NCBI RefSeq assembly: GCF_003334315.1
Contig: NZ_QOWR01000013.1
From: Escherichia coli
Lineage (GTDB): Bacteria; Pseudomonadota; Gammaproteobacteria; Enterobacterales; Enterobacteriaceae
Direction: 5' to 3' (one strand)
Length of the DNA stretch: 64,000 nucleotides
The stretch's first letter is position 1. Every line of letters begins with the position of its first letter. The notes under the pieces were generated by a model. The model made no database searches, had not been told where the DNA came from, and saw only the letters and a list, made by a program, of their open reading frames with translations. The position numbers were made by a program, and so were the translations under genes. Below, piece by piece: positions 4,306 to 33,972 of this stretch.

Positions 4306-5658
4306 TTATTGCCCCGCAACAGGTTTCAACTCGATACGCTTGATATCGCCCACCAGCACCAGGTAGCTCAGTACCGCGATTAAGGCATGAACACCAACAT
4401 AAATCAGCGCCCCATTAAACGAGCCAGTCGTGCCAACGATATAACCAATTGCGATTGGCGTGACGATGCCAGAAATGTTACCGAACATGTTGAACAGGCC
4501 ACCGGAAAGACCGCTGATCTCTTTTGGCGCGGTATCTGCCATTACTGCCCAACCCAGCGCCCCGATGCCCTTACCGAAGAAGGCCAGCGCCATAAAGCCG
4601 ATGATCATCCACTCAACGTTGACGTAGTTGCAGAACACCATCACCATCGACAGCAACATGCCCATTACGATCGGTGTTTTACGCGCAATGTTCAGCGATC
4701 CCGTGCGGCGCATCAGCCAGTCGGAAATAATCCCACCCAGCACACCGCCGATAAAACCGCAAACCGCCGGAACGGAAGCCACAAAGCCCGCTTTCAGAAT
4801 CGACATCCCGCGTGCCTGCACCAGATAAACCGGGAACCAGGTAATAAAGAAGTAAGTCAGGGCGTTGATACAGTACTGACCGATATAAACGCCGATCATC
4901 ATCCGTGCCCCTAGCAGCTGTTTGATCTGCCCCCACTTCACGCTGAACGGCACTTTAACTTTGGTGTTTTGCTGATCCATATTGATCAGCGCACCACCCG
5001 CGGCGATGTACTCCAGCTCTTTCTTATTTACCCCCGGATGTTGATTTGGCTCGTGGATGACTTTCAACCAGATAAAGCTGATGACAATCCCCAGACCGCC
5101 CATAAAGAAGAAGACGTGTGACCAGCCCACTTCATGCGTCAGCCAGCCCATAATCGGCGCGAAGATCACCGTTGCGAAGTATTGAGCGGAGTTAAAAATC
5201 GACACCGCCGTTCCCCTTTCCTGCGCCGGAAACCAGGCCGCAACAATGCGACTGTTGCCGGGGAAAGATGGCGCTTCAGCAAGCCCGACCAGGAAGCGCA
5301 GCGTAAACAGGGCAACGATAATGCCGAATCCACTAAAGATATCGACGAAGCCTTGCAGCAAGGTAAACATCGACCAGATAAAGATCGACCAGAAGTAGAC
5401 GCGTTTTGAACCAAAACGGTCCAGCAACCAGCCACCAGGGATCTGCCCGATAACATAAGCCCATGAGAAAGCAGAGAACACATAGCCCATTCCCACGGGA
5501 TCAAGGCCGATATCTTTGGCCATTTCCGAACCGGCGATAGAGAGCGTAGCGCGGTCGCCGTAGTTGAAGGATGTGACGATAAACAACATCACCACTATCC
5601 AGTAACGAGCATTTGTGCGTTTTTCCACACTGCTCGCAGCCTGACTTAAAGAACTCAT
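4306..5658 (-). CDS. gudP: MFS glucarate/galactarate:H+ transporter, 450 aa
   Basis: 450-aa ORF rich in hydrophobic helices, MFS-like; head of the gudP-gudX-gudD arrangement. Confidence 0.92.
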
Positions 5659-6092
5659 TGTTGCACTCCTGAAAATTCGCGTTAGCCACGCTCACTCTGG
5701 ACTGCGACATCGCCAGGAAATCAGAGGTGACGTAGGGTGTTTTTTGCCGTTTTTATAGGTCGTTCGCCGAATACGGCGCGTGTTTATATCTGGCAATAGC
5801 AGTATAAAAAGCGCGCCATAGCGGCTCACCGTGCAACAACACAACATTAATGCGTTCAATGAGGCCCGATTTTGGCATTAGCCCTGGACGGTGGAATCCA
5901 CTTCACGGAAATGAAAACAAGAACAAGAAAGGAAGGGTTAAAACGAAGAAATAAAGAAGAGTATGAAATGGATCGCTTGACTCCAGGCAAACGCCAGTAA
6001 AAATCCGCGCTATGAAGCAGTTTTTACTGGCATTTGCCTGAAAAGATTCGATTCAGCACCGCTAAAACGACATTTACCGCTCGCTGAACATA

Positions 6093-6542
6093 TCAGGACA
6101 ACAGCGTGCCCCACTGTTCGACCCACGGATTTGATTCCGTTTCCGGTTCCGGGTTCTCACTGGCGTCAATCAACAGCATTTCGCCAACCCGCTGAGCGCT
6201 CTGTTCCTGCAACAAGGCATCGAACTGTTTGCCGCCATTGCAGAAATTCACATAACTACTGTCGCCGAGCGCAATCACGCCATAACGCAGATTCGGCTGG
6301 AAGCCCAGACTATCTTTGATTCCCTGAAAGAGTGGCACAATGCTATCAGGAAGGTCGCCCTGCCCGGTCGTGGACGTAACCACCAGAACATACTTATCCT
6401 GATAGGGCAGCCAGTCGCTTAATTCAGGATCTTCAAATACCGTTGCTTTGTGGCCCTGCGCGGTCAGAATCGCTTCCGCTTCTTCGGCCACTAACAGTGA
6501 ATTCCCGTACATGGTGCCGACAAAAATACCAATTTCCGCCAT
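6093..6542 (-). CDS. yqcA: Flavodoxin-like protein, 149 aa
   Basis: ORF with flavodoxin N-terminal motif [15 protein letters not shown]. Confidence 0.9.
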
Positions 6543-7671: not shown

Positions 7672-7716
7672 AAAGCAACCTCAATAAGAAAAACTGCCGC
7701 GAAGGATAGCAGGAAT

Positions 7717-8082
7717 AAAAAAAGGGAGCACTGTATTCACAGCGCTCCCGGTTCGTTTCGCAGCATTCCAGCTACTTTTGTTGCTCCCTGCTCATCCTTG
7801 ACAACTTTTCCTCTGGCCTTGCGGCCAATCGTTCATCCTGAACTATTGCTTCCTGCTCACACCACCCCGATGTGATACTTCATCCTGAAGTGTCCCTGGC
7901 CTTCCTGACCCACCGAATCATCCTGACCGGTTCTCATTCTCCATCCTGGAGGTGTCCTTTAACGCGTCCTGCGTCATCCTCTTCGCTTCATCCAGAAGCC
8001 TTTCCCTGAAACACCATCCTGGTGTGTCCTGCAGAAGTGTCATCATCCTGATGTTCACTTCGTTGTCTGACTCCCTGTCGAC
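7717..8082 (-). ncRNA. csrB: CsrB small RNA (CsrA-sequestering decoy RNA)
   Basis: Minus-strand transcript begins GTCGACAGGGAGTCAGACAACGAAGTGAAC (plus strand 8053-8082); at least 9 CATCC motifs on the plus strand (AGGAUG / CAGGAUG on the RNA) plus many AGGA variants; ends with GC-rich hairpin 7724-7749 and U-run 7717-7723. Confidence 0.93.
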
Positions 8083-28543: not shown

Positions 28544-28593
28544 GCACAGAACCGGGTCGGATAAGACGTTCGCGTCTCATCCGACCTGATTGT

Positions 28594-33911: not shown

Positions 33912-33923
33912 GCGACGAAAATC

Positions 33924-33964
33924 GCCGGATGCGACATGCGTAACACTCGTGCGTCGCATCCGGC
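33924..33964. repeat. REP-like palindrome between convergent argA and recD
   Basis: GCCGGATGCGAC...GTCGCATCCGGC inverted repeat. Confidence 0.7.
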
Positions 33965-33972
33965 AATTACGT

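Follow-up and report, generated by a model that had tools for sequence, protein, structure and literature searches.

A long inverted repeat downstream of yqcA in Escherichia coli as a probable protective hairpin at the 3′ end of the yqcA message

The yqcA-gudP spacer

The DNA analysed here is a stretch of 64,000 nt from Escherichia coli, referred to as the window. All positions are those of the window unless stated otherwise, and the corresponding MG1655 coordinates (NC_000913.3) are obtained by adding 2,916,442. According to the open reading frames and the MG1655 annotation, the chromosomal locus consists of gudD, gudX, gudP, yqcA, truC, yqcC and csrB, all of which are on the minus strand. 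Three of these serve for orientation:

4306-5658, minus strand: gudP coding sequence (ORF list and MG1655 annotation)
6093-6542, minus strand: coding sequence of yqcA, which encodes a flavodoxin and closes the yqcC-truC-yqcA run (ORF list and MG1655 annotation)
7714-8073, minus strand: csrB

A long inverted repeat is located within the 437-bp spacer between yqcA and gudP, at a distance of 53 nt from the stop codon of yqcA and of about 325 bp or more from the start codon of gudP. A first-pass annotation, made from the DNA letters, had already placed it with yqcA upstream and gudP downstream, which proved correct, both genes being encoded on the minus strand.

The inverted repeat and its RNA fold

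The annotation had described the element as a long imperfect inverted repeat with a stem of about 20 bp, and 19 of 20 positions are indeed complementary. When read from the sequence, the left arm CAGGCAAACGCCAGTAAAAA is found at 5984-6003, one base off the position originally assigned (5985-6004), while the right arm TTTTTACTGGCATTTGCCTG is at 6021-6040 as annotated. The loop has 17 nt (6004-6020) and not the 16 nt first assumed. The sole non-complementary position on the plus strand, C5992/A6032, is a G·U wobble on the minus strand; the 20-bp stem comprises 8 G-C, 11 A-U and 1 G·U pairs. Upon folding, the helix is lengthened by three pairs to 5981-6043, and a 4-bp inner stem (CUGC/GCGG) with a bulged A closes the loop. 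The helix is thus continuous over 20 bp and extends to 23-26 bp when the extensions and one bulge are counted. In the sense of yqcA, the following elements can be distinguished:

6021-6040, minus strand: 5′ arm of the RNA hairpin, CAGGCAAAUGCCAGUAAAAA (sequence, folds)
6004-6020, minus strand: loop region, in which an inner stem, CUGC (6017-6020) paired to GCGG (6005-6008), encloses an 8-nt loop; A6004 bulges out (fold)
5984-6003, minus strand: 3′ arm of the RNA hairpin, UUUUUACUGGCGUUUGCCUG, with a run of five U (U5, 5999-6003) buried in the stem (sequence, folds)
5981-6043, minus strand: whole helix including the 3-pair extension, U6041-6043 with G5983, A5982 and G5981 (folds)
6045-6094, minus strand: first, weaker hairpin of the 118-nt yqcA 3′UTR, overlapping the stop codon (fold of 5976-6095)

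RNA folding of both strands, which the annotation had proposed as a check, gave -46.3 kcal/mol for the minus-strand RNA, which is that in yqcA sense (z -7.1, with 0 of 200 shuffles as good), and -38.3 kcal/mol for the plus-strand, antisense RNA (z -5.4, equalled by no shuffle). The 65-nt hairpin segment which contains the helix 5981-6043 has a dG of -40.3 kcal/mol. Among the inverted repeats of the whole 64-kb window this one ranks first. An arm pair with at least 19 of 20 complementary positions and a loop of at most 40 nt is expected by chance about 1.3e-4 times in 64 kb, and the inverted repeat is real, far beyond chance. The next-best inverted repeats in the window are REP-like palindromes of the GCCGGATGCG... 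type at 1442-1477, 28550-28591 and 33920-33968.

Conservation among E. coli strains

Each of the 5426 complete E. coli genomes carries the spacer as a single copy, and the 69 nt of the hairpin are identical in 4848 of them. Three sampled strains with a single difference share one loop substitution. The most divergent sampled strain has two changes in the loop, a change at the bulge, one at the very base of the hairpin and one C-to-U change in the stem that retains a G·U pair in yqcA sense.

Two strains carry larger rearrangements close to the hairpin. In strain 2014C-4135 an IS66-family element has inserted beside it, at window position ~5975/5976, which coincides with the mapped RNA 3′ end described below. 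In strain EC6563 gudPXD has been lost and barA is found next to yqcA; the deletion ends about 45 bp past the retained hairpin (~5936).

An RNA 3′ end just past the hairpin

The TRS study, which is based on RNAtag-seq (PMC10687069), reports an RNA 3′ terminus on the minus strand with its peak at MG1655 2922415-2922428. The dominant position is 2922417, 2922418 or 2922420 in different data tables (window 5975-5978 equals 2922417-2922420). The terminus is labelled 'distant primary' for yqcA, with a 3′UTR of 118 nt and a longest U run of 3. As the sequence windows printed in these tables disagree with the legend, the offsets were deduced from the thrL entry and checked against the listed coordinate.

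5973-5986, minus strand: mapped yqcA RNA 3′ terminus (PMC10687069 supplementary data); dominant base in LB RNAtag-seq G5976, RNA end ...GCCUGGAGUCAAG-3′

The terminus at 5976 is 8 nt past the 20-bp stem and 5 nt past the extended helix. When the 3′UTR is folded, UCAAG alone is left single-stranded after the helix, consistent with the mapped end. In the same data, yqcA is weakly expressed (about 0.14 read starts per nt), and read starts are 2-3 times denser in its 3′UTR than in its coding region.

Other data sets were also searched. The Term-seq data of PMC7815308 list no 3′ end anywhere in 2914915-2924161, and the bicyclomycin data of that study list no Rho-termination region in the same interval, which includes yqcA and gudP and in which expression is low. 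Low expression of yqcA may be the reason why the terminus is missing there. The SMRT-Cappable-seq supplements have no entry for the locus, and literature searches pairing yqcA with gudP, or gudP with CdaR, returned nothing relevant. The yqcA terminus is already present in a public table, but the hairpin itself has, as far as could be found, no earlier description.

The region beyond the terminus

Two further elements lie immediately past or across the terminus:

5886-5975, minus strand: pyrimidine-rich, G-poor tract just past the terminus in yqcA sense, a candidate rut (Rho-loading) region (composition scan)
5962-5980, minus strand: conserved motif TCAAGCGA-N5-TTCATA (TCAAGNGA-N5-WTCANA across genera), a separate element with the mapped 3′ end inside it (locus comparison)

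When read in the sense of yqcA, 60-nt windows between 5990 and 5901 have C/G ratios of 2.3-4.0, and the ratio is about 2-4 as far as 5886. One 60-nt window of the tract has 49 C or U and 4 G; the tract contains more U than C. A comparable C/U-rich stretch follows in other genera after the conserved module described in the next section.

The motif TCAAGNGA-N5-WTCANA is invariant in all loci which bear this module, and is also found, once per locus, in several genera without the long hairpin (Leclercia, Franconibacter). On the plus strand it resembles, in most genera, a CRP site with one good half (TGTGAaacaggTCGCT), which is weaker in Escherichia (TATGA...), and it overlaps a TTGAC hexamer that resembles a -35 element, likewise on the plus strand. 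A scan proposed a plus-strand promoter at 5977-6004 (TTGACT, 16-nt spacer, AAAAAT); this candidate was rejected, as other genera do not, by reading of the alignments, retain the -10-like hexamer. No plus-strand terminus or transcript is reported at 5977-6004. Motifs of sigma-54 and other sigma factors were compared by eye and none fits E. coli. Closer to gudP, at ~5830-5915, the blocks TTTCATTTCCGTGAAG...TTCCAC and GTTGTGTTGTTGCACGGTGAG are conserved across genera upstream of this gene and are likely to be its promoter or activator sites. Neither CCGTGAA nor GCACGGTGAG occurs in the garP-garD spacer.

Comparison across Enterobacteriaceae

We compared 80 yqcA loci of other species, in most of which gudP follows yqcA. 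A homologous module of about 120 nt, which extends beyond the hairpin, is recognisable in 28 of the 80 loci. Its carriers are Escherichia species, the Citrobacter koseri/amalonaticus/sedlakii group, Salmonella, Silvania, Superficieibacter, Kosakonia, Phytobacter, Raoultella and some MAGs. The module is composed, in this order, of ACTGAATCGAGTTAGC, GGCAAATGCC-nGTAAAA, a short variable stem-loop, TTTTnCnGGCATTT and GTCAAGCGA-N5-TTTCACAC. The long near-perfect stem (-27 to -40 kcal/mol) is restricted to Escherichia and, to a lesser degree, one Citrobacter. In other genera the homologous site holds a shorter hairpin, built from A-tract, GC stem and U-tract, and all of these are weak by score. The loci from Enterobacter and the C. 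freundii group are without the module, and there yqcA is followed by REP-type or other GC-rich hairpins. REP-type and other GC-rich hairpins at the same position in other lineages fit a generic, replaceable role in protecting the end.

An extra GC-rich hairpin, GCCCTCC...GGAGGGC, often without a U run, occurs in many genera (loci L019, L022, L023, L046, L057 and others) some 5-35 nt after the yqcA stop and upstream of the module. E. coli has lost it; in the genera that have it, the module lies about 100-190 nt past the stop codon.

Across genera, 66.8% of the alignment cells can pair, compared with 29-48% for slid partners, and alignment pair 46-78 clearly covaries (CG 9, AU 7, UA 3, UG 2). 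Within Escherichia the pair cells comprise 129 Watson-Crick pairs, 20 G·U pairs (yqcA sense) and 2 A·C; these sequences are related and the counts do not represent independent events. In every Escherichia relative the fold in yqcA sense is 4-12 kcal/mol stronger than the antisense fold. The pairing statistics together with the conservation pattern point to a helix which has been selected as RNA in yqcA sense rather than as a DNA dyad. The first-pass annotation had tied its reading to transcript 3′ ends at this position and to conservation of the dyad; a 3′ end is mapped here, and the dyad is conserved.

A protective hairpin at the end of the yqcC-truC-yqcA transcript

Dar and Sorek (PMC6061677) described that Rho-terminated transcripts are trimmed by PNPase and RNase II, so that steady-state ends are found just after stable stem-loops without a U-tract, with C over G in the downstream sequence. 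As the features of the hairpin match this class, we read it as the 3′-terminal protective hairpin of the yqcA message. We consider it probable that the repeat acts as RNA in yqcA sense and marks the end of the yqcC-truC-yqcA transcript in this way.

The likeness is as follows. A stable stem-loop (-40 to -46 kcal/mol) is located directly upstream of a precise steady-state 3′ end which has no U-rich tail, C exceeds G downstream of the terminus in a tract that is mostly U, and the position is that of an operon end. Where an exonuclease stalls at a stable stem, a tail of 5-8 nt is expected. There are also differences: the stem at yqcA is of unusual length (20-26 bp), is rich in AU and contains internal A5/U5 tracts; moreover, we infer Rho dependence and trimming at yqcA, and one bicyclomycin data set (PMC7815308) lists nothing there. 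Protective stem-loops at Rho-type 3′ ends are nonetheless the closest class.

The events may be envisaged as follows. RNA polymerase would read through the repeat, because the stem is not followed by a U-tract. Termination would occur somewhere in the pyrimidine-rich, G-poor tract beyond it, most likely via Rho. The 3′-to-5′ exonucleases PNPase and RNase II would then trim the tail until halted by the 23-26-bp helix, leaving 5-8 nt that end at window position 5976. The hairpin would thereby fix and protect the 3′ end of the yqcA mRNA, and the whole unit would separate the yqcA transcript from the regulated promoter of gudPXD downstream. The long near-perfect helix may serve in addition as an entry point for RNase III. 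Established here are the hairpin's structure, its bias towards the yqcA strand, the way in which it is conserved and where the RNA ends; a part for Rho, trimming by exonucleases, stabilisation of the mRNA and cleavage by RNase III are deduced from these.

Read like this, the hairpin shows where the yqcA transcript, with its 118-nt 3′UTR, really ends, and would explain how a constitutive operon is kept apart from the glucarate-inducible gudPXD, which follows on the same strand; this is of modest importance. The same site is occupied by a short hairpin with A-tract, GC stem and U-tract in some genera, by REP hairpins in others and by a long AU-rich perfect stem in Escherichia. It offers one concrete example in line with the published proposal that terminators can shift between the intrinsic type and Rho-type or processed forms, the example being a comparison across genera and not a demonstrated switch.

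Intrinsic termination

The hairpin could itself be a working intrinsic (Rho-independent) terminator, possibly a bidirectional one, in which the A5 tract, the short inner stem and the U5 run stop transcription directly while the outer arms are a mere extension. The centre of the hairpin does show the layout of A-tract, stem and U-tract (AAAAA-CUGC...GCGG-A-UUUUUAC) that is known from intrinsic terminators, which are often bidirectional. Homologous hairpins of other genera look more terminator-like, and those from Citrobacter, Superficieibacter and Raoultella resemble weak intrinsic terminators. The homologue of Citrobacter sp. MGH106 passes a simple terminator scan on both strands, and that of C. 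koseri has a 7-bp stem (CCCUUUC/GAAAGGG) which is followed by UUUU. It has to be considered that the simple scan misses homologues in which the A-tract pairs with the U-tract, and that for such homologues the label terminator-like reflects our reading of the sequences and a home-made score of the d'Aubenton-Carafa type, by which all were rated weak.

In E. coli, however, the GC stem that abuts the U5 run is cut to 4 bp, with a dG of only -2.8 kcal/mol and a d'Aubenton-Carafa-type score of d = -28. The single U5 run (5999-6003) is enclosed in the helix, where it is paired with the A5 run, and the homologues from Kosakonia and Phytobacter are entirely without a U run. A U-tract, which in an intrinsic terminator is about 7-8 nt long, is absent after the completed stem on either strand (the sequence past the stem in yqcA sense is GAGUCAAGCGAUCC, with a maximal U run of 3), and with 8 G-C among its 20 pairs the stem is not GC-rich. 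A consensus terminator scan found nothing at the repeat on either strand. The mapped 3′ end is about 25 nt beyond the U5 run, in non-U sequence past the full stem, and the tables of PMC10687069 list no terminus at the inner U run (5997-6003). Both where the RNA ends and how weak the inner stem is count against intrinsic termination, and we regard it as unlikely.

The proposal in the first-pass annotation that the repeat is a terminator insulating gudP from read-through is right in substance. The yqcA 3′ end does lie 8 nt downstream of the hairpin and upstream of the gudP promoter region, but a canonical intrinsic terminator is not found, as there is no U-tract after the stem.

A possible role of RNase III

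Alternatively, the main role of the helix of about 23 bp might be that of an RNase III processing or decay site, where cleavage controls the decay of the yqcA/truC mRNA or severs read-through transcripts before gudP. E. coli RNase III acts on intramolecular helices of about two turns (20 bp or more), a length which the hairpin reaches with 20 bp, or 23-26 bp when extended, and the in vivo rules for this enzyme (PMC6212723) include stems within one molecule that are cut twice. PMC5371410 lists a putative site for RNase III at 2922422 (window 5980, the stem base), with 48 reads in Δrnc and 0 and 1 in the two wild-type replicates. That the perfect long stem is a derived feature of Escherichia also suggests selection beyond a simple end hairpin. 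On the other hand, RNA in which the hairpin is intact and the 3′ end lies just past it can be detected in wild-type cells, so that cleavage is at most partial. The Δrnc signal at 2922422 is a low-count, unstranded coverage ratio and one among many flagged loci of low expression, and the authors of PMC5371410 saw no in vitro cleavage of some of the candidates which they tested. These data weakly suggest that RNase III also acts on the stem; to make this its main role seems to us improbable. Cleavage by RNase III is, at the same time, compatible with the protective hairpin at the 3′ end which we favour.

Table S1 of PMC5371410 also shows that the coding regions of gudP (2921482), garP (3274632) and cdaR (182886) are more covered in Δrnc than in the wild type. 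This suggests higher expression of the glucarate/galactarate regulon when rnc is deleted, and the Δrnc coverage peak could reflect induction of the regulon instead of cleavage.

The RNase III reading resembles the sib/tI retroregulator of phage lambda, a terminator nested within a longer stem which is sensitive to RNase III. Likewise, the yqcA hairpin has a terminator-like core inside a longer helix that is fully formed only on read-through RNA; this helix has the length that RNase III needs, and Δrnc coverage adds a hint. It differs from sib, where a subset of the transcripts stops at the inner terminator and escapes RNase III, in that no yqcA transcript end is reported at the inner U run, that cleavage at the yqcA hairpin is putative, and that no antitermination system is known for the operon. 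One might go further and propose that Escherichia has remodelled an ancestral weak intrinsic terminator into a two-turn double-stranded RNA helix which is near-perfect and acts as an RNase III-gated switch, so that cleavage of read-through RNA from the constitutive yqcC-truC-yqcA operon would destabilise this message for tRNA modification and flavodoxin and sever it from the inducible gudPXD operon, as a chromosomal analogue of lambda sib. We consider this extended scenario quite unlikely. If RNase III does cut the helix, the locus would be a simple chromosomal model of 3′-end retroregulation.

A small RNA, an operator or a mobile element

The 118-nt 3′UTR might give rise to a regulatory small RNA, with the hairpin as its terminal stem and the conserved ACUGAAUCGAGUUAGC block upstream as its pairing region. 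It would fit that the module of about 120 nt is conserved beyond the hairpin in 28 of the 80 loci and over several genera, and that read starts are denser in the 3′UTR than in the coding sequence. However, the authors of PMC10687069 did not flag yqcA as a 3′UTR outlier (FALSE flags), the hairpin does not have the U-rich 3′ tail which is typical of Hfq-dependent sRNAs, and the upstream block is partly diverged in E. coli (GCUGAAUCGAAUC). No Rfam family matches the element even at E-values up to 10: for E. coli, Rfam 15 returned only chance matches of at most 25.5 bits, far short of the gathering scores and all to eukaryotic families (miRNA precursors for the most part, and a snoRNA), and the search with the Salmonella locus likewise returned chance matches only. 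We thus judge a small RNA to be very unlikely.

An operator-like dyad for the glucarate regulon had been offered in the first-pass annotation as the alternative to a terminator. The repeat would then act at the level of DNA, as an operator bound by CdaR or by some other regulator of the glucarate regulon. It is located upstream of gudP, each arm has a near-palindromic GGCANNTGCC core, the adjoining TCAAGNGA-N5-WTCANA motif behaves in the locus comparison as a protein-binding site would, and the 8-mer GCAAATGC is common to the repeat and the garP-garD intergenic region. Yet this 8-mer is at chance level (E-values 0.4-1.9). None of the tested motifs is found in the gar region, where motif and blastn comparison with the garP-garD spacer gave nothing above chance. 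Arms of 20 bp that are 17 bp apart are unlike a regulator dyad, and the start codon of gudP is about 325 bp or more away. Loci from Enterobacter and the C. freundii group do not have the element although yqcA-gudP and the proximal blocks upstream of gudP are kept. Finally, an RNA end maps to the repeat, the G·U pairs of the helix are asymmetric between the strands, and variation is in the loop or preserves pairing. With this strand bias, this pattern of variation, the lack of a significant gar motif and the absence of the element in many genera with yqcA-gudP, the operator proposal is not supported, and we rate it as highly improbable. We take the hairpin to be an ordinary transcript-end structure and not a DNA operator.

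That the repeat is the remnant of a mobile or repeated element (a MITE, a repeat of the REP/BIME type, or a phage or plasmid fragment) is scarcely credible: it is an intergenic palindrome which is long and resembles terminal inverted repeats, and an IS66-family insertion abuts it in one strain, but there is exactly one copy in each of the 5426 E. coli genomes, its position is syntenic across genera, it has no resemblance to the REP-type palindromes elsewhere in the window, phage matches are absent, and matches in a plasmid collection are restricted to records of 4.8-4.9 Mb, which are evidently chromosomes.

REP/BIME elements which stabilise 3′ ends may also be compared with the yqcA hairpin. 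They too are intergenic palindromes downstream of an operon that are able to stall exonucleases, and hairpins of the REP type occupy the same position in loci from Enterobacter and the C. freundii group. The yqcA hairpin differs from them in being single-copy, in having a much longer stem and a different base composition, and in not conforming to the REP consensus.

Two small ORFs overlap the repeat, a 42-aa ORF on the plus strand (5872-6000), which is annotated by PGAP in some genomes (WP_001296328.1), and a 44-aa ORF on the minus strand (5856-5990). A coding function was considered and rejected. Both are open only within near-identical Escherichia sequences and are not conserved in Citrobacter, Salmonella and Superficieibacter, and the plus-strand ORF has a stop codon in one Escherichia lineage (L005). 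The 42-aa 'hypothetical protein' WP_001296328.1 is probably spurious; its ORF ends in the left arm of the repeat, and it is rich in K, E and R owing to the purine tract.
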